A stretch of 37,553 nucleotides of DNA, taken from positions 1 through 37,553 of the forward strand of contig JAPLYQ010000031.1 in the NCBI GenBank assembly GCA_026395475.1. Reading direction: 5' to 3'. Shown piece by piece: positions 1-27,063 of the stretch. The translations under genes and the position numbers were made by a program. Under the pieces are notes generated by a model. The model did not search any database and had not been told where the DNA came from. It saw only the letters and a list, made by a program, of their open reading frames with translations. The stretch is from Candidatus Roizmanbacteria bacterium. Lineage in GTDB: Bacteria; Patescibacteriota; Microgenomatia; UBA1406; GWC2-37-13. Positions within the stretch are counted from its first letter, which is position 1, and every line of letters begins with the position of its first letter.

Positions 1-197
1 ATAATCACGATATAAAAATAAATGATAATAATGAATATAAATTGATAACCGTCTCTATCCCAAAAGGAAGGAATATATTGTCTTTCTCTTTTGAAAATAC
101 ATTAGTACGGACTGTCGGAAGTATAATAAGCTTTTTTTCGTTGCTCATTTTGGTTTTATGTTCTTATTGGATTCATAAAAAGCGTAGAGAAGCTTAA
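1..197 (+). CDS. 3' end of an upstream gene that runs off the left edge. It encodes the C-terminal tail plus TM anchor of a large membrane protein, probably a paralog of the next gene.
   Basis: Frame 3 is open from nt 3 to the TAA at 195-197 (...ITVSIPKGRNILSFSFENTLVRTVGSIISFFSLLILVLCSYWIHKKRREA*). A tail, a hydrophobic helix and a basic end mirror the C-terminus of the 461-1828 ORF (...VVRYNETPTEKSANAITIVTFGALFVVCLNKKLWKK). It is absent from the ORF track because no start lies in the window. Confidence 0.55.
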   Translation, partial: NHDIKINDNNEYKLITVSIPKGRNILSFSFENTLVRTVGSIISFFSLLILVLCSYWIHKKRREA

Positions 198-212
198 TTT
201 AGAACCTCAATT

Positions 213-650
213 ATGTATAATGGAAGAGTGAAAAAAATCATTGTGGTTTGTATTGCTTTCATAGCTATTTTTTTCTTTTTAGGAAGAGAATTGAACCCAT
301 TGAACCCTGATATGTTCTTGGTCCATGATAATACCCAGGCTGCACGTATACAGGAGTTCTCACTCAACCTAAAAAGCGGTATTATTCCTCCTCGTCTTGC
401 TCCAAATTTTTCATTCCAACATGGATTTCCTGTTTTCAATTTTTATGCACCTTTTTCTTATTGGATAGGAGCATTTATTCACCTTGCTGGTGTCCCATCC
501 GCAACGGTGCTCAAGACCATGTTTTTCTTGGGCCTTTTTTTAGCATTCATTTCTTTTTTCCTATATGGACAGCTGTTGAAATATTTGTCCGAGGCAATGT
601 GGGAGAGATATGGTTTATCGCACTATTTCCCCTTGGTTTATATTTACTAA
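213..650 (+). CDS. N-terminal fragment of a YfhO/COG5617-like (GT-C-like) polytopic membrane protein. It is frame-shifted relative to 461-1828.
   Basis: After TM1 comes HDNTQAARIQEFSLNLKSGIIPPRLAPNFSFQHGFPVFNFYAPFSYWIGAF, the N-terminal loop pattern I associate with this membrane-protein family. The last ~25 codons (LYGQLLKYLSEAMWERYGLSHYFPLVYIY*) look non-native. Confidence 0.6.
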   Translation: MYNGRVKKIIVVCIAFIAIFFFLGRELNPLNPDMFLVHDNTQAARIQEFSLNLKSGIIPPRLAPNFSFQHGFPVFNFYAPFSYWIGAFIHLAGVPSATVLKTMFFLGLFLAFISFFLYGQLLKYLSEAMWERYGLSHYFPLVYIY

Positions 651-1828
651 TGAAAAATGATGAGGAAAAAAATGGGTTATCCTTTATAGCAACAAGTATC
701 TGTCTTTCATTTATATTTTCAGTTCATAATGTGTTATCGCTTGTCTCTGTTGTTTTCATCATTCTCTTTTCATTATTATTGAAGCATAAAAAAAAAGCAC
801 TTCTCTCAGTTTTGATCGGACTTCTTTTGGCCTCTTACTTCCTAATCCCTGCAATCATGGAAAACGGGCTTACCTATGCAAATGAAATCGCTTCAAAAAC
901 GAAATATGGTGACCATTTCCTCTGTGTATGGCAATTGTGGAAAGCTAATAAATGGAGCTTTGGAGGCAGTGGTATTGGATGCGTTAACGATGATATGTCT
1001 TTTCAAATAGGAAAAGTGCAATTGATCCTTTCTGGAATTGGCCTTATTGCATTTCTCGTACTGTTCAAGAAACAAAATCAGAAAATAATGTTAGCAATGC
1101 CATTGTTTATATTTGGGTGGACACTTCTTAGCGCATTTCTCACCACCTATCTCTCTAAGCCTATTTGGGACCTGATGTCACCTATAATGGCTGTTTTTCA
1201 ATATCCATGGCGCTTCCTCACTTTTGTCGTCTTTGGTACAGCTTTTTTTGCATCATATTTAGTTAATGTTACAAATAATAAAAAGGCTCAAATTATCATT
1301 GCTGTCGTTTTGTCCACTGGAGTACTTTTTATTTCAAGTAAATTTTTTTCTCGCCCATGGAAATATCCTTTAGATGAATATACAAGTAGTTATTTGACAG
1401 AAAAATATATTGGTCAAAAAGCAGCATATGAAATTCCGGAATATTTTCCTCGTTCCGGAGATTATAGAACATGGAGACTCTATGATACGTCAGCAACTGG
1501 ATTCTATGTAAATCCATTGATATATAAAATTAATAAACCATTTTACAAGGAGATTAATATTAACCAAGATCAGATTACGTTGCCTATCCACTATTTTCCG
1601 TTTTGGGAGATCATGATTGATGGAAAAATATTTGTTCCTCACTCTTTCGACAAGTTGGGAAGACCTATTCTATCCAATCTTTCTACTCATTCAGCAATAG
1701 TGGTGAGGTATAATGAGACACCTACTGAGAAGAGCGCAAATGCTATAACAATAGTTACATTTGGAGCACTTTTCGTTGTTTGCTTAAATAAAAAATTATG
1801 GAAAAAGATAAACTCTATTCTGAAATAA
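461..1828 (+). CDS. C-terminal major part of the same YfhO/COG5617-like membrane protein. The true start is uncertain: the ATG at 650 overlaps the upstream stop as TAATG.
   Basis: It is a multi-TM protein. Family-like sequence in this frame already begins at about nt 560 (PIWTAVEIFVRGNVGEIWFIALFPLGLYLL), upstream of any plausible start. This implies a 1-nt frame change near the T6 run at 554-559. Confidence 0.6.
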   Translation: MDRSIYSPCWCPIRNGAQDHVFLGPFFSIHFFFPIWTAVEIFVRGNVGEIWFIALFPLGLYLLMKNDEEKNGLSFIATSICLSFIFSVHNVLSLVSVVFIILFSLLLKHKKKALLSVLIGLLLASYFLIPAIMENGLTYANEIASKTKYGDHFLCVWQLWKANKWSFGGSGIGCVNDDMSFQIGKVQLILSGIGLIAFLVLFKKQNQKIMLAMPLFIFGWTLLSAFLTTYLSKPIWDLMSPIMAVFQYPWRFLTFVVFGTAFFASYLVNVTNNKKAQIIIAVVLSTGVLFISSKFFSRPWKYPLDEYTSSYLTEKYIGQKAAYEIPEYFPRSGDYRTWRLYDTSATGFYVNPLIYKINKPFYKEININQDQITLPIHYFPFWEIMIDGKIFVPHSFDKLGRPILSNLSTHSAIVVRYNETPTEKSANAITIVTFGALFVVCLNKKLWKKINSILK

Positions 1829-3243
1829 AACACAATAGTATTGTGAGCACATTGAGCCTTTTTTTTCAAAGTGGCTATTCTGCCATGTTAGGGCTTGTGG
1901 CAAATTTAGTAGTGACGATCCTACTATCTCCTGCGATATTTGGGATGTACATCACTGTAATGTCACTTATCTCCGTATTAAATTATTTTTCTGATATTGG
2001 CTTAGCCGCATCTTTAGTCCAAAAAAAAGAAGCTTCTCAGAATGACTTCTCCACCACTTTTACTGTCCAACAAGCACTTGTTGTCTTTATTGTTTTTATC
2101 GGATTTTTAGGAACAGAATTTGTAAGATCTTTTTATAAACTACCACCAGAAGCCATATATCTTTACTGGGCTCTTCTCGTAAGCTTTTTCACTTCATCCC
2201 TCAAAACAATTCCTTCCATTTTGCTTGAACGTAAAATCGCCTTTCAGAAAATTGTTCTTGTCCAGATAATTGAAAGCACTGTTTTTTATATATCGATAAT
2301 TTCATTGGCAATTTTAAAATTTGGATTAACTAGTTTTACAATCGCAGTCCTTTTGAGATCTATCACGGGGTTGATACTCATCTACATTATTTCTCCATGG
2401 AAGCCAAAATTTGGGGTATCAAAACCAAGTTTGAAAGAGCTACTATCCTTTGGGGTTCCTTTTCAAGCGAGCTCCTTCTTAGCGTTATTTAAGGATGATC
2501 TGATTACTTTATTTTTGGGAAAAGTGGTTGGATTTGAAGCGGTAGGATATATTGGATGGGCCAAAAAATGGGCCGAAGCGCCTATCAGGATTATCATGGA
2601 TAACATCACGAAGGTTTTATTCCCAGTTCTCTCTCGACTTCAAAATGACAAAGAAAAAGTGAAACAGTTGATAGAAAAAATCATGTTTTATCAAACAGCG
2701 CTACTCACTCCATCAATTCTAGGACTTGGAATCTTGATGGATGATGTAATTCATGTTATTCCAAAGTATTCAAAATGGGTACCCGCCCTTCCTCTTCTTT
2801 ATATTTTTTGTATATCTGCTTTTTTTGCATCATTTTCATCCCCTCTTATCAATTTAATTAACTCTCTTGGGAAAGCAAAGATATCATTTATATTTATGTT
2901 CATCTGGACAATTATTACGTGGATATTAACTCCTCTGCTCACGCATTATTATGGATATTATGGATTCCCACTTACTGTAATGATCGTGTCACTTTCATCA
3001 ATATTTGTAGTTAAAAAAGCCCAAGAATTTGTGCCATTTCATATCTTTGCATCGATCTATAAGCCATTCTTTTCCTCCCTTGCAATGGCGGTTGTCATGA
3101 TACTTGTAAAGCAGCTGTTTCCACATACCCTTTATGGCATTGTGCTTACCGGATTATCAGGAAGTGTCACATACTTGCTTGTGCTTATGTATATATTTAA
3201 AATAAACATTATGAACGAATTAGTATTATTATTTAAAAAATAA
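1798..3243 (+). CDS. Wzx/RfbX-type polysaccharide or oligosaccharide flippase (MOP superfamily)
   Basis: 481 aa with about 12-14 TM segments. The N-terminus SIVSTLSLFFQSGYSAMLGLVANLVVTILLSPAIFGMYITVMSLISVLNYFSDIGLAASLVQKKE and the central LLERKIAFQKIVLVQIIES are typical of 'polysaccharide biosynthesis protein' flippases. Confidence 0.8.
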   Translation: MEKDKLYSEIKHNSIVSTLSLFFQSGYSAMLGLVANLVVTILLSPAIFGMYITVMSLISVLNYFSDIGLAASLVQKKEASQNDFSTTFTVQQALVVFIVFIGFLGTEFVRSFYKLPPEAIYLYWALLVSFFTSSLKTIPSILLERKIAFQKIVLVQIIESTVFYISIISLAILKFGLTSFTIAVLLRSITGLILIYIISPWKPKFGVSKPSLKELLSFGVPFQASSFLALFKDDLITLFLGKVVGFEAVGYIGWAKKWAEAPIRIIMDNITKVLFPVLSRLQNDKEKVKQLIEKIMFYQTALLTPSILGLGILMDDVIHVIPKYSKWVPALPLLYIFCISAFFASFSSPLINLINSLGKAKISFIFMFIWTIITWILTPLLTHYYGYYGFPLTVMIVSLSSIFVVKKAQEFVPFHIFASIYKPFFSSLAMAVVMILVKQLFPHTLYGIVLTGLSGSVTYLLVLMYIFKINIMNELVLLFKK

Positions 3244-3244
3244 T

Positions 3245-3388
3245 ATGAAAATCACAGGAATCACAATAATCAAAGGACGACCAGACCACGTATATGCGTG
3301 TTTAACATCTCTTGAGAAGCTTGCGGATGAGGTCATGGTTGTCGATATTGGAATGGAAGCTTCGCTCAAAGAAGAAGTAAAAAAATGA
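3245..3388 (+). CDS. N-terminal 47-codon fragment of an LgtF/WaaE-like GT2 glycosyltransferase, split from 3385-4128
   Basis: ATG at 3245 gives MKITGITIIKGRPDHVYACLTSLEKLADEVMVVDIGMEASLKEEVKK*. This aligns position for position with the N-terminus of the intact paralog at 14171 (MNNISVLIQTHNEDRHIRECITSAKFLSQEVVVVDMESTDRTEEIAKE). It stops at the TGA right after the A7 run at 3379-3385. Confidence 0.6.
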   Translation: MKITGITIIKGRPDHVYACLTSLEKLADEVMVVDIGMEASLKEEVKK

Positions 3389-4128
3389 AAAAGGTAACTG
3401 TAATTGAAGAAGAACATGTAGAGTATGTAGAACTTATACGAGAAAGAGTAAAAAATAAAGCAAAACATGAATATGTGTTCTTTTTAGATGCTGATGAAGA
3501 ATTGTCATCTTCTCTTATCGATGAATTAAAAAATATATATAAAAAATACGATGTAATAAAAATTCCACGAAAGAACATGGTTTTTGGGTCCTGGGTGCAA
3601 CATAGTAGATGGTGGCCAGATTATCAAATACGATTATTTAAAAAAACCGCTCTTGTTTGGCCAACAAAAATACACCAACAACCAGAAATAAACGGTGAAG
3701 TCTATGAACTTCCACCTGAAGAAAAAAATGCGATACTTCATCACAATTATGACTCAATTGATGACTTTATTATAAGAATGATGCGTTATGCCAAAATAGA
3801 AGCGCTTGAAAAAATTGAATCCAAAAAAGAGTTTCATTTGAGAGAAGCAACAGGAAATGCTGTGTCAGAATTTGTCAGTAGATATTTTGCCGGTGAGGGT
3901 TATAAAGATGGCATGCTTGGCTTTACTTTGGGAATACTCCAACTCTTTTATTCATTTCTCGTCTACTTCTACTATTGGGAAAAGAGGCGATATAGTGCTG
4001 ATATTGAAGACCCAGCAGCAAATATGAAACGATTCTTCGCTCAGGGTCTTGCAGAAACAATCTATTGGGGACCTAAGCGTGTTACTGATAAAATACTGGG
4101 CGCAATGATTAGAAGAATGATGAAGTAA
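3385..4128 (+). CDS. Main part of the LgtF/WaaE-like family 2 glycosyltransferase, lacking its first ~47 residues in this frame
   Basis: It has FFLDADEE (DxD), PRKNMVFGSWVQHSRWWPDYQIRLFKK and ILHHNY. It is a paralog of 14171-14944 (FILDADER, PRKNMFGGVKWLRRGGWWPDEQMRLIKL, FLHYFH). Confidence 0.8.
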   Translation: MKKVTVIEEEHVEYVELIRERVKNKAKHEYVFFLDADEELSSSLIDELKNIYKKYDVIKIPRKNMVFGSWVQHSRWWPDYQIRLFKKTALVWPTKIHQQPEINGEVYELPPEEKNAILHHNYDSIDDFIIRMMRYAKIEALEKIESKKEFHLREATGNAVSEFVSRYFAGEGYKDGMLGFTLGILQLFYSFLVYFYYWEKRRYSADIEDPAANMKRFFAQGLAETIYWGPKRVTDKILGAMIRRMMK

Positions 4129-4135
4129 AACTACT

Positions 4136-5845
4136 ATGAAAAAAGCGAAATTGAGTGCTTTGATATTTATCCTATTCGTCTTCATAACTGTATTCGCATT
4201 TGTTATTCGAATATATAAGGTGGATCGTGCACCCTCAGGATTGCTCGTTGATGAAGCAAGTTTTGGATATAATGCCTACTCAATCCTTAAAACAGGTAAA
4301 GACGAACATGGCGTTTTGTTTCCATTAATTTTTAAGGCATTCGGGGATCAGAAGTTACCAGCCTATGCATACTCAGTTGTTCCCTTCATTAAGGTATTTG
4401 GCCTAAACAATCTCGCAGTACGTCTGCCTTCTGTCTTGGCAGGCACTTTACTTTCAGGAGTAGTTTTTCTCTTACTGATTGAGGTTGGTTTTACACTTCC
4501 CGTAAGCTTTATTGGAGGACTTATAACTGCTACCTCACCGTGGTCAGTAATTTTAAGCAGGTTTGGTTTCGAATCAAACTTTGGTCTCCTTTTTTTTATG
4601 CTTGGTTTTTTATTCACCTATAAATCGTATAAAAATAAAAGTATTTTATCTGCAATATTTTCTGGAATATTTTTTGGCATCACTTTATATAGTTATATAG
4701 CATTTAAACTTATTACTCCCGTTCTTCTAGTTGGCGTTATCACATTACAACACTTTATAGAAAAACAGAATAAGAAGGTGAGTGTTTTTATCTTTATTGC
4801 TTTTTTACTGTCGATCCTCCCCATCCTCATAACCGCCTTTTCATCGCAGTCAACTGCACGGTTTACTCAGGTCGGCTTAAACTATAACACGGGGTTAAAG
4901 ATGGAGATTAATGAAGATCGCGCATTTTGTGGTATTAAGTTACCTGGGTTACTGTGTTATGCAACAGCGAATAAGCCGCTTTTCTATCTAAGAACGTACT
5001 TGTATCGATATATCACGGCTTTATCCCCTTCCTATCTTTTTCTTGAAGGTGACACTGAATATAAATATCTAAACGTTGACAATTTTGGATCGTATTATGT
5101 ATGGCTACTACCTTTTTACTTACTGGGATTTTTTTACTTATGGAAGAAGGCGAGTTCTCGACTACTTGCTAGATTTGAAATAATTCTTCTGCTTGGTCTT
5201 TTAATTTGTCCTCTTCCAACGCTTCTAGTCAGTGGACCACAAAAAGTACGTATCTCTGCTTTTTTTCCTTTCATCCTCTTCGTAATACTTTATGGAGTTG
5301 CTCAGATTGAAACAATTTTGAAAAAATCATGGCATAAATATGTTTTTTTTGGCACCATTATACTTTTATCTTTTCTCTCCATCGGTTATTTTATGATTCA
5401 TTTTTTAACAATCCATATTCAAAAAAATGAACTATCTTATGGAACTTATATTCCCAAACTTATGAAATATCTCGGTCAACAAGATAAAAATGTACAAATC
5501 TATATTAGATCACTTCCAGAAGCTGTCACATATTTTGCTTATGAGAATACAGTAGATCCAAAATCATATCAGGAAAATGTAATATTTAAGCAACCTGATG
5601 CAATTGGATTTGCCCATGCAAAAGATCTCATGAATATTCATATAATTGAACAAGATATGTTTGGAATTGCTTGTAAAGCAAGAAGTCAGAAAGAAGAAGC
5701 TTTGTTTGTTTCAAGCGATAATGATCTTTCAGTACCAATTAAATCAAAAACAGTCTTTAACTCCGAAAATGGAGTAAACGCAGCCGCAGTTGTATATGAT
5801 TTAAAAAATATTATTTTCGATTATGCTCGCTGCCCTCAAAAATAA
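4136..5845 (+). CDS. GT39/PMT-ArnT-like polytopic glycosyltransferase (GT-C)
   Basis: 569 aa, multi-TM. The loop after TM1 reads VDEASFGYNAYSILKTGKDEHGVLFPLIFKAFGDQKLPAYAYSVVPF. It is a clear paralog of 16873-18486. Confidence 0.75.
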   Translation: MKKAKLSALIFILFVFITVFAFVIRIYKVDRAPSGLLVDEASFGYNAYSILKTGKDEHGVLFPLIFKAFGDQKLPAYAYSVVPFIKVFGLNNLAVRLPSVLAGTLLSGVVFLLLIEVGFTLPVSFIGGLITATSPWSVILSRFGFESNFGLLFFMLGFLFTYKSYKNKSILSAIFSGIFFGITLYSYIAFKLITPVLLVGVITLQHFIEKQNKKVSVFIFIAFLLSILPILITAFSSQSTARFTQVGLNYNTGLKMEINEDRAFCGIKLPGLLCYATANKPLFYLRTYLYRYITALSPSYLFLEGDTEYKYLNVDNFGSYYVWLLPFYLLGFFYLWKKASSRLLARFEIILLLGLLICPLPTLLVSGPQKVRISAFFPFILFVILYGVAQIETILKKSWHKYVFFGTIILLSFLSIGYFMIHFLTIHIQKNELSYGTYIPKLMKYLGQQDKNVQIYIRSLPEAVTYFAYENTVDPKSYQENVIFKQPDAIGFAHAKDLMNIHIIEQDMFGIACKARSQKEEALFVSSDNDLSVPIKSKTVFNSENGVNAAAVVYDLKNIIFDYARCPQK

Positions 5846-7481
5846 TAGATTGGAGAAAATAATATTTATTCTTTTTCTTTTATCTTTAGGTGTCAGATTT
5901 TACTTTCTTTTCTTTGGATTTGGGTCAATTACCAATGATGAAGCAGACTATTACCTCACAAGTTACCTATTTGCAAAAACGGGAACTGACCAATTTGGTC
6001 ATACTCTTTTTTTTAGCTCAGGCTTTTTAAATGCAATATCAAGTGTACCTGTGTATATCGGCGCACTTTTTTTCAAAATACTTCCTATCAAAAGTATTCT
6101 TCTTGCACGTCTACCTTTTGCACTCCTTAATTCATTAACTCCAGTATTATTCTTTACTTGCATATATTTTTTTTCCAATAGTATCCTCTACTCACTTATA
6201 GGTTTTGGGATTTTTAATTTTTCTCCTTGGTTTTCGCATCTTTCAGCAACTGCGGCATTTGATTCTCCTCTCTCATTACTCTTCTTCTTGGGAGCAGTAA
6301 ACAGTTTTTGTTACATAAAAAAGCCAATTTGGCTTAAATATGGTTTATTTATTTTCTTCAACTTCCTTGCGTTCAATTCTTATATGGGGTTCAAGACTAT
6401 CTTTCCTTTCTTATCACTCCTTTTCTTACTTTTGTATTTTTATTCACAAAAAAATAAGCTTTCTTTGAAGCAAATTGGCTTTTGGGTTATTTTCTCAGTC
6501 TTCATTTTTGTATCTTTTTTTACAATATCACTCAAAGGGCCAGGAGGCAACCTTTTCTCAAGTCGCGCTACAAAAACAATTGTTTTTCTCAACAAGAATT
6601 TAATCGAGAATGAGGTATGGTATGCAAATTTAACAACAAATAATAAAGTCGTCAGAAAACTATTTAATAACAAAGCTATTGCTCCTCTGCAATTATTCAT
6701 GTCAAAATACGCTAATGTATTTAACCCTGCAATATATTTTTTTGCAGAACCGCACATTATATATGGCTTACGCATAATGGGCCTTTTCTTTGTGACAGAT
6801 ATCTTTTTCTTTGCAATTGGATTGTTTTTTGGATTCCAGACTTTAACGTATAAAATGAAAGCTCTGATTCTCGGATTGTTATGTATAGCACCAATTCCTG
6901 CTGCCCTTCAGATAGAAGGTCTTACAGTGGCATTGAGAGGAATATTCTTGCTCCCTGCAATTTCACTTGTCATTGCGTGTGGATATCACTTTCTTATTAT
7001 AAGAATAAAAAATAAATTATTTTATATTGCTCTTATACTTTTATTTGTATTTAACATATGCAGCTTTTTTGCGCTCTATCAAAGTCGTATTAAAACAATA
7101 AGCGCTGAGTCATGGGGAGGAAGTCAAAAAATGGTTATAGAAGATCTCAATCACTATAAAAATAACAAAATACATATATATACTAATGAAGGGAATAGCT
7201 TTTTAATGCTATATGGAATGTACAATGAAATAGCCAATCCACAATCGCTCAAAAGCGAGCTGATAAAGGAAAATGTTGATAAATATGTCTATGAGAACAT
7301 AACCATTCACTTTTCATGTGAGGATATACTTAAGGAAAGTAATGAAGGATACATTGTATTTGATGTAAAAAAATGTCCATCAGAATATAAAGTAAAAAAA
7401 GCCCATTTTAAGACACTCAAAGAGTACTATAGCTTAGACAAATCTGGAGATCTTCTCTATATTCTTGCAAAAAGTATTTAA
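5823..7481 (+). CDS. GT-C-like polytopic membrane glycosyltransferase (PMT/ArnT-like, divergent)
   Basis: 552 aa, multi-TM. TM1 is followed by ITNDEADYYLTSYLFAKTGTDQFGHTLFF, and there is a soluble C-terminal domain of about 130 aa. It overlaps the upstream gene by 23 nt. Confidence 0.6.
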   Translation: MLAALKNNRLEKIIFILFLLSLGVRFYFLFFGFGSITNDEADYYLTSYLFAKTGTDQFGHTLFFSSGFLNAISSVPVYIGALFFKILPIKSILLARLPFALLNSLTPVLFFTCIYFFSNSILYSLIGFGIFNFSPWFSHLSATAAFDSPLSLLFFLGAVNSFCYIKKPIWLKYGLFIFFNFLAFNSYMGFKTIFPFLSLLFLLLYFYSQKNKLSLKQIGFWVIFSVFIFVSFFTISLKGPGGNLFSSRATKTIVFLNKNLIENEVWYANLTTNNKVVRKLFNNKAIAPLQLFMSKYANVFNPAIYFFAEPHIIYGLRIMGLFFVTDIFFFAIGLFFGFQTLTYKMKALILGLLCIAPIPAALQIEGLTVALRGIFLLPAISLVIACGYHFLIIRIKNKLFYIALILLFVFNICSFFALYQSRIKTISAESWGGSQKMVIEDLNHYKNNKIHIYTNEGNSFLMLYGMYNEIANPQSLKSELIKENVDKYVYENITIHFSCEDILKESNEGYIVFDVKKCPSEYKVKKAHFKTLKEYYSLDKSGDLLYILAKSI

Positions 7482-11007: not shown

Positions 11008-11038
11008 ATAGGTAATTGTATATTATAGCCTCTCGTTA

Positions 11039-11047
11039 TGCTAGAAT
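11039..11047 (+). promoter_or_regulatory. Candidate extended -10 element TGcTAGAAT directly upstream of the ATGs at 11048 and 11054
   Basis: TG at 11039-11040 and TAGAAT at 11042-11047. The predicted +1 (about 7 nt downstream) falls on the second in-frame ATG (11054), suggesting a leaderless mRNA. Confidence 0.3.
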
Positions 11048-12544
11048 ATGAATATGAAAAAGGTATTATATGCAGTTCTCTTTTGCATCTTTTGTGCCTT
11101 ATTTATTTACTATCGTATACCCTCCCTTTTAGCACATTATGTTGCATACACATATGATCAAGGAAGAGATTTTATTGCGGGAGCAAATATAGTAAGACTT
11201 CATAAAATTCCCTTTATTGGACCTACCACAGGAATTAACGGATTATTTCATGGATCATGGTGGTATTACCTGCTTGCAATCCCATATATACTTTTTAAAG
11301 GAGCTCCAATTGGGTATTATTGGTTTAATTTTTCAATTCAGTTCAGTCTCCTTATTGTTCTCATGGTTTTCCTCAAAAAAGAATTTGGTTCTCTTACCTC
11401 TCTTTTATTCGGAATATTGATAGTAGTAGCTCCCTATTTCACTTTTATATCTTTATTTGCTGGGAATAATGTGATGGTCTTACCCGCTCTTTTAATATTT
11501 TTAATATGCAATTATTATCTCTTTACTAGTAAAAAGATATCTTTACCCCTTCTTTTCGTCACTGGGTTTTCGTTAGCGCTTGTGGGTGAATTTGAACTTT
11601 CATTTGGTATCTTTCTTGTGCCGCTTTATCTTATTGGGATCCTCATATTCCGTTCCCTTCGAAAAGCACTTATTAATAAAAATGGATTAATGTTCCTCTT
11701 TGGGTTAGTAGTAGGGTTTATGCCTCGTATCCTTTTTGAACTTAAAAATTCATTTACCCAAACAAAAGTACTTTTATCATTCCTATTTCATCCAAAACTT
11801 TATAGTGCGGCAAGCCCATATCTAAGCCGAGTAAGTGAGCGATGGATATTATTTAAAACATATTATTTTGAGATGTTTAGTGAACGTTATTTTGCATATA
11901 TATTCCTTATATCTATTTGCGTAATTGCAGGGTTAACACTCATTGCAGTGTTACAAAAAAGAACCAAAACGCAACCTATTTTTATCTTTTATATCTATTT
12001 ACTTGGGGGATTATTTTTCCTCGCAACATTATATAAAGATTTTTTCTGGAAAAATTATTATGAAGGTATTCATTATATTTTCCTTTTTGTATTCATCTCA
12101 CTCATTGGCCAACAAATACAAAAAAAGCATGTTTTGATAAAGCGCTCGATTCTCTTTAGTTTATTATTTGGATTCTGTGCTCTTGGAATGATTAGTGCGC
12201 GTGAAACATATATGCATAAACCTCCATTTGATGGACTTCAGGTACAAGAGGCAATTGTAAATTATGTTAATAAAAATCAAGATCAACATCAAGAATACTG
12301 TTTGAGAATCTATACACCATCGGTTATTCCGCACACCTATAATTACCTTTTCCTTGTCCGAAACGTGAAACCGTCTAGTGAATGGGTAAATGGCACTTGT
12401 TGGTTTATCGTAGAAGCCGATAGCTATAAACAAAGACGTGATGATTGGTTGACGATAAATGAACCTAAAGATAAACACACTGTTGTTGTGAAGACGATAA
12501 AAGATGTTGAGATCCGTTATTACAAAGTAAATCCCCAAGAATGA
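11048..12544 (+). CDS. GT-C-like polytopic membrane protein, 'YDQxRD' subfamily, copy 1
   Basis: 498 aa, multi-TM. After TM1: YTYDQGRDFIAGANIVRLHKIPFIGPTTGINGLFHGSWWYYLLAIPY, collinear with the next gene. It has a soluble C-terminal domain. The start may be the ATG at 11054. Confidence 0.55.
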   Translation: MNMKKVLYAVLFCIFCALFIYYRIPSLLAHYVAYTYDQGRDFIAGANIVRLHKIPFIGPTTGINGLFHGSWWYYLLAIPYILFKGAPIGYYWFNFSIQFSLLIVLMVFLKKEFGSLTSLLFGILIVVAPYFTFISLFAGNNVMVLPALLIFLICNYYLFTSKKISLPLLFVTGFSLALVGEFELSFGIFLVPLYLIGILIFRSLRKALINKNGLMFLFGLVVGFMPRILFELKNSFTQTKVLLSFLFHPKLYSAASPYLSRVSERWILFKTYYFEMFSERYFAYIFLISICVIAGLTLIAVLQKRTKTQPIFIFYIYLLGGLFFLATLYKDFFWKNYYEGIHYIFLFVFISLIGQQIQKKHVLIKRSILFSLLFGFCALGMISARETYMHKPPFDGLQVQEAIVNYVNKNQDQHQEYCLRIYTPSVIPHTYNYLFLVRNVKPSSEWVNGTCWFIVEADSYKQRRDDWLTINEPKDKHTVVVKTIKDVEIRYYKVNPQE

Positions 12545-14178
12545 AATTATTTAAAAATCCACTTTTCTTACTTTTCCTTATTGTCGTTGTTGCATTCATA
12601 GTGCGAACGATTAATTTAAAAGACAATATCCTTTTTGCTTATGACCAAGCTCGGGACGCTCAACGCGTCTACACTATGATCTATGGGGGTCATTTGAAAA
12701 TTGTGGGACCAGAAACTGACATTCCTGGCATTTTTAACGGACCACTTCTGTACTATGCGTTAGCACCAGTCTATTATTTTTCTCATTTTGATCCCAATGC
12801 GGCTGCACTCCTATTCGTTTTTATAAATGTGGGCACAATCCTTCTTGTATATTGGGCAGCAAAACTATTATTCAATAAAAATTCAATTGCACTCATTGCT
12901 TCACTTTTTTGGGCATTTTCATTTGAACAGGGCTTTTTTGCACGCTATATATCAAACGCTTCTCCTATGTCTACTGCGACAACCATATTCTTTATTGGCC
13001 TTGCATTGTTTTTCTTAAAAAAGAAACAATGGGGACTTCCTTTAAGTGCGATAGGGATCGCCCTCTCAATTCATTGTAATTTTTACTTTATATACCTATT
13101 TCTTTTTTATCCCCTCTTCTTTTTTATCTATAAACAAAAACCTACTGTAAAAACTGTTGTGACAACAATTCTCTTTCTTGGAGCACTACTCTCCCCTTGG
13201 ATCATTACTGAATTAAAATGGAAATTTGTAGGAACACGATCATTATTCTTATACTTTGTTCATCAAGGAACAACCGCTACATCTATTAATCCTCTTTCTT
13301 TTATTCTGTCAATTCTTACTCGTTATTATGATCGAGTTGCACAGGGAATATATTTTTCATTCATACCTAATAAAATTATTGGTTTTTCGAGTGTTGCTAT
13401 TTTATTACTATATCTTGCTTTTAAGAAGCGTTTGCCAGCAGCGCTATTTCTCATTTTCTGGACACTGAACACTCTTCCACTCTTTGCATTTAAATCAGGT
13501 GTACATAGCGTTGAAGTGATTAACGGAAGTATTTTTGTTCCTCTTACATTACTGATTGCATATGGAATTACTGAACTATCAAAAATTAAAATAAGCAGAG
13601 TTCCTGTAATTTCGATTCTTTGTGCAGTTTCCATTATTTTATATGGATTTTTTAATTTTATAGTACATAACTTTCGCACTTATGTCATTCAAACGTCTAT
13701 CCCTTCCCTGTTAGTAAATGAAAAAAAAGTTATTGACTATACGTATACAACTGCTCAAAAAAAGGATTTTGGCATTTGTTCAATATCGGAACCTTTGTTT
13801 ATGAATACCGTGTGGTCATTTCTATACTCAACTTATGGAAAGCAAAAATATGGCTATCTCCCTTATTGGACGGGACAAAAACAAACATTGAATGATAGTT
13901 TCATTCCGTATGCGCATCAAAAATATGCAACTAAATTTATTATCCAAGAACCTATGTTTGGAATCCCTCAATGGGCTCTTCGCTCAGTTTATTATATTGA
14001 AGATAGCCAGAACGTACTCATAAAAAAAAGTACATTTGGAGATTTCGGAGTTCAACAAAGATTTTTTACAAAAGAAAATGGAGGAAATATCGACGCATAT
14101 TCTGAAAGTTTAAAAAACTCAATAAAAGAAGATTTAGATAAGATTCCTCAACTCAGTTGCGATAATATACATGAATAA
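12541..14178 (+). CDS. GT-C-like polytopic membrane protein, 'YDQxRD' subfamily, copy 2 (tandem paralog)
   Basis: 545 aa. After TM1: FAYDQARDAQRVYTMIYGGHLKIVGPETDIPGIFNGPLLYYALAPVYY. It has an ATGA start/stop overlap with copy 1. Confidence 0.55.
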   Translation: MKLFKNPLFLLFLIVVVAFIVRTINLKDNILFAYDQARDAQRVYTMIYGGHLKIVGPETDIPGIFNGPLLYYALAPVYYFSHFDPNAAALLFVFINVGTILLVYWAAKLLFNKNSIALIASLFWAFSFEQGFFARYISNASPMSTATTIFFIGLALFFLKKKQWGLPLSAIGIALSIHCNFYFIYLFLFYPLFFFIYKQKPTVKTVVTTILFLGALLSPWIITELKWKFVGTRSLFLYFVHQGTTATSINPLSFILSILTRYYDRVAQGIYFSFIPNKIIGFSSVAILLLYLAFKKRLPAALFLIFWTLNTLPLFAFKSGVHSVEVINGSIFVPLTLLIAYGITELSKIKISRVPVISILCAVSIILYGFFNFIVHNFRTYVIQTSIPSLLVNEKKVIDYTYTTAQKKDFGICSISEPLFMNTVWSFLYSTYGKQKYGYLPYWTGQKQTLNDSFIPYAHQKYATKFIIQEPMFGIPQWALRSVYYIEDSQNVLIKKSTFGDFGVQQRFFTKENGGNIDAYSESLKNSIKEDLDKIPQLSCDNIHE

Positions 14179-14944
14179 TATTTCAGTTTTAATTCAAACC
14201 CACAACGAAGATCGACATATAAGAGAGTGTATTACTTCTGCAAAATTTCTTTCTCAAGAGGTTGTTGTTGTCGATATGGAAAGCACAGATAGAACTGAAG
14301 AAATCGCAAAAGAAAGTGGCGCCCTTGTTATTTCTTTCCCTTTTTCACATTATGTTGAACCCGGGCGCGCCTTTGGCATACAGCAGATTAAAACTGACTG
14401 GGTATTTATTCTTGATGCGGATGAACGTATAACTCCAGAACTTGCAGCAGAAATAAAAAGGATTGTACCTCACACAGAAAACACTTACTTTAAAGTACCA
14501 CGAAAAAACATGTTTGGAGGCGTGAAATGGTTAAGACGCGGCGGCTGGTGGCCGGACGAGCAGATGAGACTTATCAAGCTTTCTGCCTTTGAATCCTGGC
14601 CAACACAAATACACTCAACACCTCTTATAAAAGGTGAGGTGGGGCATTTAAATAACGCATTTTTACATTATTTTCATGGAAATGTGGAAACAATGGTTAA
14701 AAAAACTCTCCTCTTTGAAGATATTGAGTCAAACCTACTTTTTGAGGCTAATAAGCCTGTCACAACTCTCACTTTTTTCAGAAAATTTTATGGAGAACTT
14801 GGAAGAAGGCTATTTCAGAGGGTCGGCTTTTTAGACGGTACTGTTGGTATAATAGAGAGCATATACCAAGCGTATTCCAAAACGATTACTTATCTATTAT
14901 TATATGAGAAGAAAAACCGTCGGCCTATACACCCCCTATCTTGA
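14171..14944 (+). CDS. LgtF/WaaE-like family 2 glycosyltransferase (intact paralog of 3245-4128)
   Basis: Motifs present: ISVLIQTHNEDRHIRECI, VVVVDMESTDRT, FILDADER, WWPDEQMRLIK and HYFHG. Confidence 0.8.
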   Translation: MNNISVLIQTHNEDRHIRECITSAKFLSQEVVVVDMESTDRTEEIAKESGALVISFPFSHYVEPGRAFGIQQIKTDWVFILDADERITPELAAEIKRIVPHTENTYFKVPRKNMFGGVKWLRRGGWWPDEQMRLIKLSAFESWPTQIHSTPLIKGEVGHLNNAFLHYFHGNVETMVKKTLLFEDIESNLLFEANKPVTTLTFFRKFYGELGRRLFQRVGFLDGTVGIIESIYQAYSKTITYLLLYEKKNRRPIHPLS

Positions 14945-15971
14945 CATCATGGGCGGCGGAGAAAAACATATTCTCTCAATCCTAAAGGTATTTGATGATG
15001 CAGATTACAATACAATTCTTTTTTGGGATACCGATGTTTCTACAGAAATAAAAGAGAAATTAAAACTCACATTCAAGCACTTGCGTTTTGAAAAAGATTT
15101 AAAGAAAATGACTTTTTTTGAAAAGGCTAAAAAACTTGCCCCACTTGATTGGCTTTTGTATGTCACTGATGGAAGTTACTTTTTCTCTCCTGCAAAGAAA
15201 ACCGCTATTTTTTGTATGGTTCCTGACAAAAAACTTTATAATCTTTCTCCAATAAATTCTCTAAAAACGGCAAATGCAATTTTTATTGCAAACTCGCATT
15301 TCACTGCTGGTTGGCTTCATAAATGGGACATTTCCTCTCAAGTAGTGTATCCATATGTTAGTAGCGAATTATTTATATCAGAACCAAGACAAAGAAGCCC
15401 AATTGTTCTCACAGTAGGGAGATTCTTCAAACATCTTCATGCAAAGCGCCAACAAGATCTTATAAAAACATTTTTACGTTTTCACGAACATCATCCTGAA
15501 TATGTGCTCGTTCTTGCCGGAGGTGTGAAAGAAGAAGATTCTCAATACGTGAGAGAGTTAAAAGATGAATTTCCACAGTCCTTTATTCTTTTTAAAACGA
15601 ATATCTCATTTGATACGCTTAAAGATCTCTATAAAAATTCAATGATGTATTGGCATTTTACGGGTTTTGGTGTGGATGCAACGGCCCATCCAGAGCAGGT
15701 TGAGCACCTTGGCATGACGCCACTTGAAGCAATGGCATCTCGTACAGTTCCTTTTTGTTTTAACGCAGGTGGGCCACGAGAATTAATTGAGAATGGGAAG
15801 AATGGATTTCTTTTCAATACTGAAGAAGAACTGTTGCGACAAACATCATATTTTTTAAATACACCAACACTCCAACAAAAGATGGGAGAGACCGTCTATC
15901 GCTTTGCGGAAAAATCATTTCATTATGATGCGTTTACCTTACATGTTAAAAAAATATTTAAAATTAAATAA
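14904..15971 (+). CDS. GT4 (GT-B fold, 'glycosyl transferases group 1') glycosyltransferase
   Basis: N-terminal YTPYLDIMGGGEKHILS, then TVGRFFKHLHAKRQQDLI and EHLGMTPLEAMASRTVPFCFNAGGPRELIENGKNGFLF (EX7E-type motif). Confidence 0.8.
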   Translation: MRRKTVGLYTPYLDIMGGGEKHILSILKVFDDADYNTILFWDTDVSTEIKEKLKLTFKHLRFEKDLKKMTFFEKAKKLAPLDWLLYVTDGSYFFSPAKKTAIFCMVPDKKLYNLSPINSLKTANAIFIANSHFTAGWLHKWDISSQVVYPYVSSELFISEPRQRSPIVLTVGRFFKHLHAKRQQDLIKTFLRFHEHHPEYVLVLAGGVKEEDSQYVRELKDEFPQSFILFKTNISFDTLKDLYKNSMMYWHFTGFGVDATAHPEQVEHLGMTPLEAMASRTVPFCFNAGGPRELIENGKNGFLFNTEEELLRQTSYFLNTPTLQQKMGETVYRFAEKSFHYDAFTLHVKKIFKIK

Positions 15972-16876
15972 TGATTTCCGTCGTCATTCCACACTACAAG
16001 GGGAAAGAAAAACTGTATTCAAATTTAAAGCATAATCTTCCTTTTTTTAAAGATTGTGAGATTATTGTTGTTAACGACTATACGGAAGTATCTATTACAG
16101 GGGAAATGAAACAACTTTTTCCTGAAGTTGTGGTTATTGAAAATAAAAAGAATCTTGGATTTGCAGGAGCAGTAGTGGTGGGTATCAATCATTCAAAAAG
16201 TCCTTATGTGTTTCTCCTGAATAACGATGTCGTGCTAAAAGATGATTCATTTAAATCTGCGCTCACACATTTTCAAGGGACACCGAGTCTGTTTGCTGTC
16301 AGCTTTAAACAAATTGAAAAAGACGAAAAGCATGTTGGTAGAAATAAAATATATTGGTCTCATGGATTTTTCCGTCACAGCAAGGGAGATCCTGGAACAC
16401 ATGGTATTAATGGATGGGCAGAGGGAGGAAGTATGGTGTTTGACAAAAAGAAATATGAAGAACTCCATGGATTTGACACGCTTTATTCACCATTTTATTG
16501 GGAAGATATCGATCTCTCCTATCGTGCTTGGAAAGCAGGATATACGATTCATTTTGACTCGCACGTACTCGTGGAGCATCATCATGAATCGACAATCGCA
16601 ACATATTTCCAGAAATCTAAAATTGAGACAATTGCATATCGTAACCAATTTATTACGATTTGGAAAAATATATCTGATTTTCAATATATTGCAGAACATA
16701 TAATGTATCTCATAAAAAACCTTATTACCTATCCTCTGAAAGGTCAGTTAAATTTTGTGAACGGATTTTGGATGGCGCTCCTTCTTCTTCCTCAAATAAT
16801 AAAAAAGAAAAATCAACAAAAAAAATTGTGGAAAAAAAGTGACAAAGAAATATTTGAAAAATTTAACCTATTATGA
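15971..16876 (+). CDS. Family 2 glycosyltransferase
   Basis: Motifs present: ISVVIPHYKG, IIVVNDYT, NLGFAGAVVVGI, LLNNDVVL and FYWEDIDLSYRAWKAGY. Confidence 0.8.
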   Translation: MISVVIPHYKGKEKLYSNLKHNLPFFKDCEIIVVNDYTEVSITGEMKQLFPEVVVIENKKNLGFAGAVVVGINHSKSPYVFLLNNDVVLKDDSFKSALTHFQGTPSLFAVSFKQIEKDEKHVGRNKIYWSHGFFRHSKGDPGTHGINGWAEGGSMVFDKKKYEELHGFDTLYSPFYWEDIDLSYRAWKAGYTIHFDSHVLVEHHHESTIATYFQKSKIETIAYRNQFITIWKNISDFQYIAEHIMYLIKNLITYPLKGQLNFVNGFWMALLLLPQIIKKKNQQKKLWKKSDKEIFEKFNLL

Positions 16877-18486
16877 ATAAAAAAATTGTCATCTCAACCC
16901 TTCTTGCCATTACAGTCATTTCATTCCTGCTGACAGTAGTAAATTTTCGTATTCCTTCTCCCCCATCTTTTAATGCTGACGAAGCAGCTTTTGGATATAA
17001 CGCTTATTCGCTGTTAAAAACGGGAAAAGATGAATATGGGACATTCCTTCCTTTAAGACTCAAGTCATTTGGAGATTATAAGATGCCTCTCTATAGTTAC
17101 CTTTCCGTCCCTTTTATTGCTGTTATGGGACTTACTGAGACAAGCACAAGAGCTCTCAATGCATTTCTTTCGCTACTTTTTCCTTTAGCTGTGTTTCTCT
17201 TAACAAGAGAGTTGTTTAAGAAAGATCTGTACGGACTTGTTGCCGCGTTTTTTTGTGCAACATCTCTAGGACTACATATCGTCGCACGACACGCACATGA
17301 AGCTTATCTTGCGGCATTTCTGACCACAACTACATTTTATTTTCTTCTGAGATTTTTAAAACGACAATCAAAACTTGCAGGTTTATTTTTTTCTCTGTCA
17401 CTTTTTCTCATGCTCTTTGCCTACCAGACGGGCAGACTATTTGCTGGGTTATTTTTTTGTGCAGCAGTGATATATGCTATTCAACAAAAAAAAGTGAAAA
17501 AATACCTTCCAATATTCCTCATTGTGATAATTATCATTGGGGTTTTCAGTATTAGCGACTTAATCTATAAGCCTGAACGGCTCAAAAGTCTGTTCTTTTT
17601 TTCAAGCCCAGGAGTCCAGCTTACAGTAAACGAATTAAAAACAGAGGGTGGAATTCGTTACCTTTATAATCCTCTTTTTGTTGGAATACGTGAAATGGCA
17701 TTTGAACACTTTAGTTATTTCTCCCCACAATTCCTCCTTCAAAACGGGGATGGAAACGACCGATTTGGATATAAAGGAATGGGGCTAATTACTCCAATTG
17801 AATATATCTTATTCTTTGTCGGAATATATTATTTAGTAAAGAAGAGGGAAGAATGGGGATTTGTTTTGTTATTTATTTTATTTCTAACTCCCCTTTCGGC
17901 ATCACTGTCTTGGTCAACCTCTTCTCTTACCAGATCACTTTTCCTTCTTATACCTATTTCTACACTTGCAGGATATGGTGCAGTAAACTTATTCCATTCT
18001 TTAAAAAAGAATTATTATTCCTATCTAACTATTGGCCTGGTTGTTTGTCTATTTGGATATCTAGCCCTTATGCAGTGGGATTTTTACTTGTTCCACTATC
18101 CAAAACGACTTATTACTATCCATGCATGGCAAGCAGGCTACAAGGAAGTGAATGGATATATAAGAGAGAATTACGATTCAACAAATCACTTTTATATTAC
18201 GAGAGATATTGGACAACCTTATATATTTACCCTCTTCTACCTGCAATATCCCCCAGCAAAATATCAGAAAGAAGCGATTCTTTCCTCACCTGATGAATAT
18301 GGATTTGGACAGGTGGAGAAATTCGATAAATTCATATTCGAATTCAAGAGCCCAAGTAAGCTGCAAAAAAATGACGTAGTTATTGGTTCGCGAGATAACT
18401 TTAGAGAAATTGAAAAACAATATAATCCAATAGTTATAGCTCCACAAGGAGAACCGATGTTTGAGATATATAAAAAATCAAATTAA
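16873..18486 (+). CDS. GT39/PMT-ArnT-like polytopic glycosyltransferase (paralog of 4136-5845)
   Basis: 537 aa, multi-TM. After TM1: FNADEAAFGYNAYSLLKTGKDEYGTFLPLRLKSFGDYKMPLYSYLSVPF. Confidence 0.75.
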   Translation: MNKKIVISTLLAITVISFLLTVVNFRIPSPPSFNADEAAFGYNAYSLLKTGKDEYGTFLPLRLKSFGDYKMPLYSYLSVPFIAVMGLTETSTRALNAFLSLLFPLAVFLLTRELFKKDLYGLVAAFFCATSLGLHIVARHAHEAYLAAFLTTTTFYFLLRFLKRQSKLAGLFFSLSLFLMLFAYQTGRLFAGLFFCAAVIYAIQQKKVKKYLPIFLIVIIIIGVFSISDLIYKPERLKSLFFFSSPGVQLTVNELKTEGGIRYLYNPLFVGIREMAFEHFSYFSPQFLLQNGDGNDRFGYKGMGLITPIEYILFFVGIYYLVKKREEWGFVLLFILFLTPLSASLSWSTSSLTRSLFLLIPISTLAGYGAVNLFHSLKKNYYSYLTIGLVVCLFGYLALMQWDFYLFHYPKRLITIHAWQAGYKEVNGYIRENYDSTNHFYITRDIGQPYIFTLFYLQYPPAKYQKEAILSSPDEYGFGQVEKFDKFIFEFKSPSKLQKNDVVIGSRDNFREIEKQYNPIVIAPQGEPMFEIYKKSN

Positions 18487-27043: not shown

Positions 27044-27057
27044 GCTCCAAAAAAATG

Positions 27058-27063
27058 TATAAT
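27058..27063 (+). promoter_or_regulatory. Candidate -10 box (TGTATAAT) 5 nt upstream of the ATG at 27069
   Basis: TATAAT at 27058-27063 is preceded by TG. Only ACAGT separates it from the start codon, so a leaderless transcript is possible. Read-through from ftsEX is equally possible. Confidence 0.25.

Follow-up and report, generated by a model that had tools for sequence, protein, structure and literature searches.

What surface structure could account for ~22 kb of a ~1.1-1.2-Mb genome, at one fixed site, being given over to about ten species-variable glycosyltransferases that act on the outer face of the membrane? This question is raised by nt 1-37,553 of contig JAPLYQ010000031.1 (assembly GCA_026395475.1) from Candidatus Roizmanbacteria bacterium, the stretch of DNA analysed here and referred to below as the window. 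Its first half, nt 1-18486, is a glycosylation island made up of nine polytopic genes of the glycosyltransferase C (GT-C) type, four GT2 genes, one GT4 gene and one gene for a Wzx-type flippase. Bacteria of the Candidate Phyla Radiation (CPR) are thought to be attached to other cells, and their surface coat is almost uncharted.

The answer that we favour, with a probability of roughly 60%, is that the island is a two-tier surface-glycan assembly and decoration locus of a Roizmanbacteria-like bacterium, with the window holding the larger part of a locus of ~22 kb. In the first tier, the GT4 and soluble GT2 enzymes would work on the cytoplasmic side of the membrane, making a core that is either a lipid-linked oligosaccharide or a glycolipid, and the Wzx-type flippase would carry the lipid-linked sugar to the outer face. 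In the second, eight to ten outward-facing GT-C enzymes of four sequence families, with an invariant Asp/Glu in an extracytoplasmic loop, would add sugars singly from polyprenyl-phosphate-sugar donors; their acceptors would be the tier-1 glycan, another wall polymer or surface proteins.

How firmly can the polytopic proteins be placed? We are highly confident that they are GT-C glycosyltransferases: family or fold evidence from Pfam, profile comparison or AlphaFold and Foldseek was obtained for all nine, in agreement with the initial annotation of the window, which had called them GT-C-like. Five are PMT_2-like, two PTPS_related/YfhO-like and one MptA_B/GT87-like, and one (7478-9139) has no Pfam match; the Pfam families named for them all belong to what we take to be the GT-C clan. 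The Pfam scan covered open reading frames (ORFs) of at least 100 aa, and genes are cited below by their start coordinates once introduced.

The PMT_2-like group is anchored by 4136-5845 (+; motif VDEASFGYNAYS), whose 28.6 bits against PMT_2 pass the gathering threshold of 26.1 and whose orthologue in the related locus L063 carries PF02366 (PMT). Its paralogue 16873-18486 (+; motif ADEAAFGYNAYS; blastp E 5e-32), the last gene of the island, scores 25.2 bits against PMT_2 and 22.0 bits against PMT, both just under the gathering scores, and has orthologues that pass and carry PF13231. The same model is found in the L001 orthologue of 12541-14178 (+; FAYDQARDA), which itself gives a weak PMT_2 match of 18.7 bits. 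The other two members, 5823-7481 (+; TNDEADYY) and 11048-12544 (+; YTYDQGRDF), lack a Pfam match as single sequences. The 5823 protein aligns with that of 4136 at 25% identity over 529 aa (blastp E 8e-7), and hhalign comparisons of family alignments built from the relatives' syntenic genes link the 5823 family to the 4136/16873 family (100%, E 2e-42, 469 columns), the 11048 family to the 12541 family (99.9%, E 4e-31, 415 columns) and the 12541 family to the 4136/16873 family (98.9%, E 2e-17, with the acidic motifs aligned). Half of the 11048 family (6/12 members) also matches PMT_2 directly. We describe 5823 as a divergent PMT_2-like tandem paralogue of 4136, 11048 as representing a PMT_2-like subfamily with the motif YTYDQGRDF, and 12541 as its PMT_2-like tandem paralogue. 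The PMT_2-like proteins end in a C-terminal soluble domain of ~130-170 aa.

Three further genes belong to two other families. The PTPS_related/YfhO-like gene 213-1828 (+; VHDNTQAAR) is disrupted and reads as 213-650 plus 461-1828; its fragment scores 24.8 bits against PTPS_related (PF10131; threshold 26.4), 19 of the 29 members of its family match PF10131 (best 5e-15), a few match YfhO, DUF6541 or PMT_2, and the family profile reaches 92.9% against the PMT_2-like profile. Its paralogue at nt 1-197 (+) is the 3' end of a gene that runs off the window, and the encoded 64 aa match the C-termini of PTPS_related proteins of 570-640 aa with ~10 transmembrane (TM) helices (up to 58% identity, E 2e-15); the syntenic gene in L063/L066 encodes 579 aa with PF10131. 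The protein of 9919-11007 (-; SHDLFNYLFDARI) carries a precomputed assignment to PF26314 (MptA_B_family), and GT87 is matched by 3 of its 30 relatives. We rejected it as an MptA orthologue, its score against the MptA-type model TIGR03459 (28.5 bits, E 7e-7) being far under the equivalog cut-off of 439. NCBIfam gave no matches for seven of the eight polytopic proteins scanned, and the families of 7478, 9919, 11048 and 213 found nothing meaningful among PDB sequences.

The gene at 7478-9139 (-; YPDEFVNILGG ... DFFDHH) belongs to a family for which no Pfam or NCBIfam model exists: it gave no Pfam, NCBIfam or PDB-sequence match, even with a 51-sequence profile. Its fold prediction is confident (AlphaFold pLDDT 91.2, pTM 0.90), and the 13 top Foldseek matches of the model in the PDB are all GT-C enzymes (STT3, AglB, DPY19, Pmt1/2, AftB, AftA; probability 0.93-1.0), with ALG3 and AftD further down. 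The alternative that the polytopic proteins are transporters was rejected; the major facilitator superfamily and other transporters score a probability below 0.12 with this model, and none of the nine is transporter-like. One distant family member passes PMT_2 at 35.8 bits. The family is rare, as a profile search of 1.84 billion representative proteins returned only 669 representatives at E <=1e-3 and 97 at <=1e-30. It conserves YYWIGPYEP; the W[WYF]D[YWF]G (WWDYG-type) motif occurs in none of the island proteins, and membership of the oligosaccharyltransferases (STT3/PglB/AglB) was therefore rejected.

A GT-C enzyme working at the cell surface should have its catalytic acidic loop outside, and here the sequences are informative in two ways. 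All eight acidic motifs proposed initially were located, at residues 32-38 in seven proteins and at residue 97 in the eighth; the proposed position just after TM1 holds for the seven, and in 9919-11007 it is the third predicted TM helix that precedes the motif. Every family alignment keeps at least one invariant Asp/Glu of the motif: D36/E37 in the 4136 and 16873 families, E40 and D42 in the 5823 family, D37/E38 in the 7478 family, D37, R40 and D41 in the 11048 family, D35 in the 12541 family, H33, D34 and R40 in the 213 family, and D99 and D106 in the 9919 family. As to orientation, the model helices of the 7478 protein and its lysine/arginine distribution predict 11 TM helices with the N terminus inside (N-in): ~21 Lys/Arg lie in the N-terminal tail and alternate short loops with the adjoining helix ends, and none in the opposite short loops. 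This model places D37/E38 and D60-H61-H62 in the first outer loop and puts the C-terminal domain on the same side. The charge difference across TM1 points the same way in seven proteins, where a net positive N-terminal tail is followed by a neutral or acidic flank. The invariant cysteine pairs in the C-terminal domains of the 11048 (C418/C451) and 5823 (C499/C518) families suggest an extracytoplasmic location, and the homologues fused to GtrA that are described below, in which the GT-C part follows a four-helix GtrA domain, would fit an N-in start. The predicted helices and charges thus support an N-in topology with the acidic loop facing outside, as the initial annotation had supposed.

What would supply the outer-face enzymes with a substrate to work on? 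The Wzx/MOP-family flippase at 1798-3243 (+) matches Polysacc_synt_3 with 175.7 bits and Polysacc_synt with 79.6 bits, scores ~134 bits against the NCBIfam MOP flippase and O-glycosylation Wzx models, below their cut-offs, and has relatives annotated as 'oligosaccharide flippase family protein'. Flippases of the Wzx type classically move diphosphate-linked oligosaccharides. The GT4 enzyme at 14904-15971 (+) has a GT-B fold and is cytoplasmic (Glycos_transf_1 82.5 bits, Glyco_trans_1_4 48 bits). The adjoining GT2 at 15971-16876 (+; Glycos_transf_2 59.9 bits, Glyco_tranf_2_3 50.3 bits) is of the oligo- or polysaccharide-making type, its family profile finding chondroitin synthase (58.7 bits), PglI (35.8 bits) and DPMS (35.2 bits, N-terminal part only) in the PDB. 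A soluble GT2 is encoded at 14171-14944 (+; Glycos_transf_2 59.6 bits), and a rhamnosyltransferase-like one at 9140-9952 (+; Glycos_transf_2 37.8 bits; TIGR01556 44.7 bits, below cut-off). Pfam thus confirms the flippase, the GT4 and, above the gathering threshold, these three GT2 enzymes, all named in the initial annotation; the fourth GT2, at 3245-4128 (+), is frameshifted and is recognised as a paralogue of 14171-14944 (blastp E 2e-28). As a GT4 and an oligosaccharide-type GT2 are present, we propose that a lipid-linked core is assembled within the cell and then taken out by the Wzx protein. With a GT4 and several GT2 enzymes arguing for such an intracellular core, a two-tier logic is likelier than the purely Gtr-like one first suggested for the island.

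Is the accumulation of GT-C genes an accident of this contig? A scan of one genome per species yielded 59 island loci, all but three of them from Roizmanbacteria-type metagenome-assembled genomes (MAGs). Synteny with related genomes, which the initial annotation had wished to see examined, is conserved. Many of these MAGs (L006, L009, L011, L013, L017-L019 and others), which are binchicken co-assemblies, are titled 'uncultured Gammaproteobacteria'; the titles look wrong. The island lies beside dnaG-rpoD in about 50 Candidatus Roizmanbacteria genomes, and in the 24 species-level loci of at least 20 kb, the 21-kb neighbourhood holds a median of nine polytopic non-Wzx genes (range 6-11) and four soluble glycosyltransferases, which is not chance. 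Read from right to left in the window, the conserved order is dnaG-rpoD, a CAAX-type protease, the module of 16873 GT-C, 15971 GT2, 14904 GT4 and 14171 GT2, variable GT-C genes, the module of 9919 GT-C, 9140 GT2 and 7478 GT-C, variable GT-C genes, the module of 3245 GT2, Wzx and 213 GT-C, and further GT-C genes. There are thus three conserved modules (GT2-GT4-GT2-GT-C, GT-C-GT2-GT-C and GT2-Wzx-GT-C), and the variable slots are filled in relatives by PMT_2 (504 aa), DUF2079, PMT and several families without a model. As the GT-C set varies between species around the three modules, the surface structure made by the locus is probably species-variable. Gene by gene, identity to the window runs from 26% to 82% in L004 and from 58% to 91% in L063/L066, a mosaic typical of surface-structure loci. 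Three pairs of tandem paralogues (1-197 with 213-1828, 4136 with 5823, 11048 with 12541) show that the GT-C set grew through tandem duplication.

The relatives also define the borders. On the right, the island ends at a gene for an Rce1-like/CAAX-type membrane protease (18483-19049, -; Rce1-like 34.2 bits), whose counterpart adjoins rpoD in 13 of 15 loci and the 16873 homologue in 11 of 20; in the window, its stop overlaps the end of 16873-18486 by 4 nt. On the left, the closest relative, L063/L066, matches the window exactly in gene order (~77% nucleotide identity in L066) and extends the island by one gene, encoding a 503-aa PMT_2 protein, so that the complete island in this lineage comprises ten GT-C, one Wzx, four GT2 and one GT4 gene in ~22 kb. 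Beyond it, L066 carries a Kup potassium transporter followed by GT8, NTPase_I-T, LigB and YdjC genes, and L068 and L005 have comparable housekeeping borders. The GT8 gene (L066:2185-3021) lies ~2 kb left of the island border, with the kup gene in between. These flanks cover ~5 kb in L066 and L068, where genes have precomputed Pfam assignments, and ~2.4 kb in L005 (three ORFs scanned with Pfam); on this basis we rejected the idea that a priming transferase or ligase lies immediately beyond the left end of the window. No priming transferase, Wzy, Wzz, ligase or glycan ATP-binding cassette (ABC) exporter was found inside the island or adjacent to it in the relatives. Some relatives' islands encode single-TM proteins of ~157-214 aa and a 467-aa protein with 12 TM helices (L007:15012-15569, L009:11652-12125, L036:10029-12083) that have no Pfam or NCBIfam match; they are possible accessory, polymerase-like or flippase-like components.

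Comparison with the closest relative also explains why two genes of the initial annotation, whose ORFs were otherwise recovered at or near their coordinates in the ORF table, are not single reading frames. In 213-1828, 64 nt are missing near nt 564 relative to L066, which removes ~21 residues and shifts the frame; the L066 counterpart is intact at 582 aa. In 3245-4128, one base is lost in an A-run near nt 3381, as mapped against L066; the gene is intact in relatives, at 294 aa. Both genes appear to be inactivated in this genome. The lesions could be real pseudogenes, through module decay or phase variation, or assembly errors.

By analogy with known enzymes, the GT-C proteins would use polyprenyl-phosphate-linked donors on the outer face. 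Enzymes of the MptA/B families use polyprenyl-phosphate-sugar donors. For the 7478 family, independent support for such a donor comes from gene fusions and neighbours: at least 23 of its 149 best representatives are N-terminal fusions to GtrA (PF04138, 92.8 bits), which is a flippase family for polyprenyl-phosphate sugars. One fusion (L069:6001-8061) sits between rmlB/C/D/A-like genes and a gene for a 318-aa GT2 that is 41% identical to PgfS/ArnC-type GT2 enzymes from the relatives' islands; it aligns with the 7478 protein over the full length and keeps the DE..NILGG and DFF.HH.P motifs. This arrangement, with GtrA fusions also present in P0184, P0215 and others, has the form of a compact two-gene, three-component glycosylation system. 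PgfS/ArnC/DPM1-like GT2 enzymes (250-318 aa) lie within the islands of the distant relatives L020, L022, L025-L032, L037, L052 and L058, and one such in-island GT2 reaches 280 bits against PgfS (cut-off 500, so it is not an equivalog) and 180 bits against ArnC. The PgfS/ArnC type and the 3245 type (L004-L018) are nearly mutually exclusive; functional replacement of one by the other was rejected as an explanation, since the pattern tracks phylogeny. In transmembrane glycosylation systems, PMT_2 and YfhO-like GT-C enzymes use polyprenyl-phosphate-sugar donors (PMC8035078).

Several observations weigh against two-tier assembly. One concerns donor supply: no polyprenyl-phosphate glycosyltransferase is recognisable among the window's GT2 enzymes, which leaves the supply of GT-C donors unaccounted for within 37.5 kb. 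The combination of a Wzx protein with several cytoplasmic glycosyltransferases is also the look of a classical repeat-unit pathway. The two broken genes, both of which flank the Wzx gene, may mean that part of the pathway fails in this organism, if they are not assembly errors. On the side of the GT-C assignment, the Foldseek matches of the 7478 model have modest TM-scores of 0.27-0.45 and a borderline E-value of 8e-4, and it is for these TM-scores that the protein is placed as a distant member of the predicted GT-C fold. The 9919 model (pLDDT 91.5) returned nothing with E <0.4, and only PIGU (0.44), ALG3 (0.38) and ArnT (0.21) had raised probabilities. Finally, whole-protein Kyte-Doolittle profiles with the positive-inside rule missed helices and gave near-equal Lys/Arg counts; they left the orientation undecided and were not relied on.

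Could the locus instead be a multiplied set of purely multi-component decoration systems of the Gtr/Gac/Csd type? Each GT2 would then make one polyprenyl-phosphate monosaccharide, the Wzx protein would flip all of them, and the neighbouring GT-C enzyme would transfer the sugar to a polymer made elsewhere. This is the main rival, essentially the model of the initial annotation, and we consider it unlikely. Gene order speaks for it: every GT2 adjoins a GT-C gene (3245 beside 4136, 9140 beside 7478 and 9919, 14171 beside 12541, 15971 beside 16873), and the adjacencies are often conserved, the 9140 GT2 standing beside a 7478 homologue in 33 of 49 loci. So do the textbook three-component arrangements of distant 7478 homologues, and the position of a broken GT2 and a broken GT-C gene on either side of the flippase gene, which fits the loss of a donor/transferase pair. 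Precedents exist in GacI, a cytoplasmic GT2 with a separate membrane protein, and in the Wzx-type flippase GacK, which is paired with, and works together with, the GT-C enzyme GacL (PMC8035078). However, the GT2 enzymes of the window are unlike GtrB, ArnC, PgfS and DPM1. Their family profiles give only weak N-terminal matches to DPMS (~24-35 bits) and GtrB (~20-29 bits) in the PDB, the ArnC and PgfS models are matched by none of the four, and the best score, that of 14171-14944, is a marginal 24 bits against PpgS, with 19 bits against a dolichyl-phosphate hexose transferase, both far below the cut-offs. The initial proposal that a GT2 loads single sugars onto a lipid carrier thus found no backing in these comparisons, although a cryptic GacI-like role for a window GT2 is conceivable. 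Such systems also offer no place for the GT4, nine to ten GT-C enzymes stand against four GT2 enzymes, and neither a small GacJ-like partner nor a GtrA-like ORF was found in the window.

A second alternative is general protein glycosylation, with the GT-C enzymes either O-glycosylating secreted proteins such as S-layer or pilus proteins or transferring a flipped oligosaccharide, each to its own acceptor. PMT and PMT_2 matches together with an Asp-Glu motif in loop 1 are typical of protein O-mannosyltransferases, the best structural matches of the 7478 protein are the oligosaccharyltransferases STT3 and AglB, and the best match of the in-island GT2 of a relative is PgfS of the Streptococcus mutans Pgf system. 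The soluble enzymes add to this: the 3245/14171 family profile finds GmaR (67 bits, whole catalytic domain) and SunS (47 bits) and only 20-24 bits for DPMS/GtrB, so that by profile comparison the closest solved relatives of this family are direct protein or peptide glycosyltransferases. Set against these points are the lack of a WWDYG-type motif in any island protein and the low TM-scores to oligosaccharyltransferases noted above; neither the island nor the genes beside it encode a candidate acceptor protein, and the MptA/B-like enzyme points toward glycan elongation. Moreover, teichoic acids and polysaccharides are also among the acceptors of the PMT_2 and YfhO families (PMC8035078). We regard protein glycosylation as the general function of the locus as improbable.

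An ordinary Wzx/Wzy heteropolysaccharide locus (for an O-antigen, a capsule or a secondary wall polymer), in which some of the polytopic proteins would really be a Wzy polymerase or a ligase, is suggested by a Wzx-family flippase accompanied by five cytoplasmic glycosyltransferases, by the difficulty of recognising Wzy from sequence and by a variation in gene content that resembles O-antigen loci, but is very improbable given that all nine polytopic proteins have positive GT-C evidence, that none matches Wzy, Wzy_C or Wzz, and that no phosphoglycosyl transferase, chain-length regulator or catalytic LCP domain occurs in the window or in the left flanks of L066, L068 and L005.

This agrees with the domain content of the window, where the Pfam scan found no WecA/WbaP, Wzy/Wzz or ligase domain, as initially stated. 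Pfam and NCBIfam gave no Wzy, Wzy_C, Wzz, WaaL or LCP ligase match there, and Glycos_transf_4 and Bac_transf were matched by none of the scanned ORFs; neither a polyprenyl-phosphate-sugar synthase nor a priming enzyme is in the window, and the latter may lie elsewhere in the genome. With the relatives' borders free of a priming transferase, Wzy and ligase (ORF neighbours in L066, L068 and L005), the view that this is not a classical O-antigen or capsule locus stands. The only sugar-activation gene found in the window is the lone RmlA-like gene already pointed out initially, a short sugar-1-phosphate nucleotidyltransferase at 31197-31946 (+; NTP_transferase 189.9 bits; 235.9 bits against TIGR01207 rmlA, below the cut-off of 360.65), and it is a possible source of donors for the island.

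We also put forward a bolder idea, which we regard as less likely than not. In it, at least ten GT-C enzymes from one hypervariable locus would assemble, almost wholly at the outer face of the membrane, either the principal glycopolymer of the Roizmanbacteria envelope or a dense coat of glycoproteins. Such a machinery would match, independently and in miniature, the mycobacterial one for arabinogalactan and lipoarabinomannan (LAM), and would include at least one GT-C family outside the curated databases. Cassette-like turnover through tandem duplication, replacement and pseudogenes such as 213-1828 and 3245-4128 would then set the specificity of host attachment or of phage receptors in these episymbionts.

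The island is packed very tightly. Most neighbouring genes overlap by 1-41 nt, and the others are separated by gaps of ~0-40 nt. The start codons of the divergent genes 7478-9139 (-) and 9140-9952 (+) abut without a spacer, and the convergent genes 9140-9952 (+) and 9919-11007 (-) overlap by 34 nt, so any promoters must sit within coding sequence. Scans for promoter and terminator consensus sites found fewer or no more sites than in shuffled sequence, from which no operon boundaries can be drawn, and neither Rfam nor tRNA scans of the window gave a match. Its right half is of housekeeping type, with prfB-like, dnaG, rpoD, ftsE/ftsX and rpoB genes. Base composition stays at 32-37% G+C along the whole window and shows no jump at the island, and homologues of the island genes come almost exclusively from MAGs of Candidatus Roizmanbacteria, Microgenomates or Patescibacteria. 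It follows that the window comes from the chromosome of a Roizmanbacteria-like CPR bacterium and is not a mobile element.

Some of the genes outside the island also touch on the cell envelope. The initial annotation saw no ABC exporter, which is right for glycan export; the window does have one ABC pair, FtsE/FtsX at 25464-27043, which is not a glycan exporter. It is followed, within 25464-28265, by a protein that combines a coiled coil like that of PcsB with a Peptidase_C39_2 domain, an arrangement that resembles the FtsEX-PcsB wall-hydrolase module with another hydrolase domain. Next come, at 28380-30899, likely surface or secreted proteins in a row: a lamin-tail-domain (LTD) protein, a VanZ-family membrane protein and a CAP-domain protein. 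The 481-aa protein of 20256-21701 (-) consists of a weakly PilM_2-like N-terminal part, a membrane segment, a Pro/Thr-rich linker and a LytR_C domain, and the domain scan found no catalytic LCP domain in it.

What, then, is new about this locus? In the open-access literature, we came across no account of a GT-C-rich island from CPR, Patescibacteria, Microgenomates or Roizmanbacteria. The enzyme classes and the general mechanism are known; new are a conserved and yet variable locus of ten GT-C genes in a reduced genome, and a GT-C family that is absent from Pfam and NCBIfam. The share of the genome that it occupies and its variation between species suggest that Roizmanbacteria invest heavily in a surface glycan that is complex and evolves fast. 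The locus also offers concrete targets, namely the family without a Pfam model, with its invariant DE...DFFDHH and a confident structure prediction, and the three conserved modules, which lend themselves to heterologous expression. In addition, the island can be used as a marker locus for strain typing in metagenomes.

Finally, we would like to place the island among known glycosylation systems. Its membrane enzymes share with PMT (GT39) and ArnT (GT83) the PMT_2/PMT matches, the Asp-Glu right after TM1 and the C-terminal soluble domain; unlike these, they score around the gathering thresholds, and no MIR domain was reported. To our knowledge, this kind of organism has no lipid A, which makes an ArnT-like role unlikely. 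The Pgf locus of Streptococcus mutans is arranged as PgfS-PgfM1-PgfE-PgfM2. The likeness lies in a GT2 combined with two polytopic GT-C-type membrane proteins per operon and in the PgfS match of a relative's in-island GT2, whereas the window has neither a PgfS-type gene nor an epimerase and the GT-C enzymes of the island are far more numerous.

The island appears by analogy to resemble most closely the assembly of arabinogalactan and of lipomannan and LAM in mycobacteria and corynebacteria, which involves PimA/B, Ppm1, PimE, MptA/B/C, EmbA-C and AftA-D. There, cytoplasmic GT4 and GT2 enzymes make a lipid-linked core that is flipped, after which many GT-C enzymes elongate and branch it outside from polyprenyl-phosphate sugars. 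The initial annotation knew of no characterised model with so many distinct GT-C families in one operon-like block; this machinery does have many such families, with genes that are more dispersed. The island has an MptA_B-family member, and AftA, AftB and AftD are among the structural matches of the 7478 protein, a likeness that the TIGR03459 score does not extend to orthology. It differs in belonging to another phylum and a tiny genome, in forming one compact syntenic block that varies by cassette, and in having a Wzx protein instead of an ABC exporter, with no Ppm1-type synthase, Emb-type or DPPR-pathway genes seen.

The other close comparison is with multi-component transmembrane glycosylation systems, for which we considered GtrA/GtrB/GtrX, CsbB-GtcA-YfhO, GtlA/GtlB, CsdAB/CD/EF-CflA and GacIJKL (PMC8035078). 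Each of these has one GT-C enzyme, and two to four systems are scattered over a genome, whereas the island combines nine to ten GT-C enzymes of four families with one flippase; the window also lacks a GtrB/CsbB-type GT2 and GtrA and interleaves a GT4 and an oligosaccharide-type GT2. Common to both are outward GT-C enzymes of the PMT_2, YfhO-like or Pfam-less type with a conserved acidic motif in an outer loop, a GT2 beside the GT-C, a flippase that may be of the Wzx type as in GacK and, in distant homologues of the 7478 protein, fusions to GtrA next to a GtrB-type GT2. Seen in this way, the island extends the logic of multi-component glycosylation from single GT2/GT-C pairs to a whole battery.

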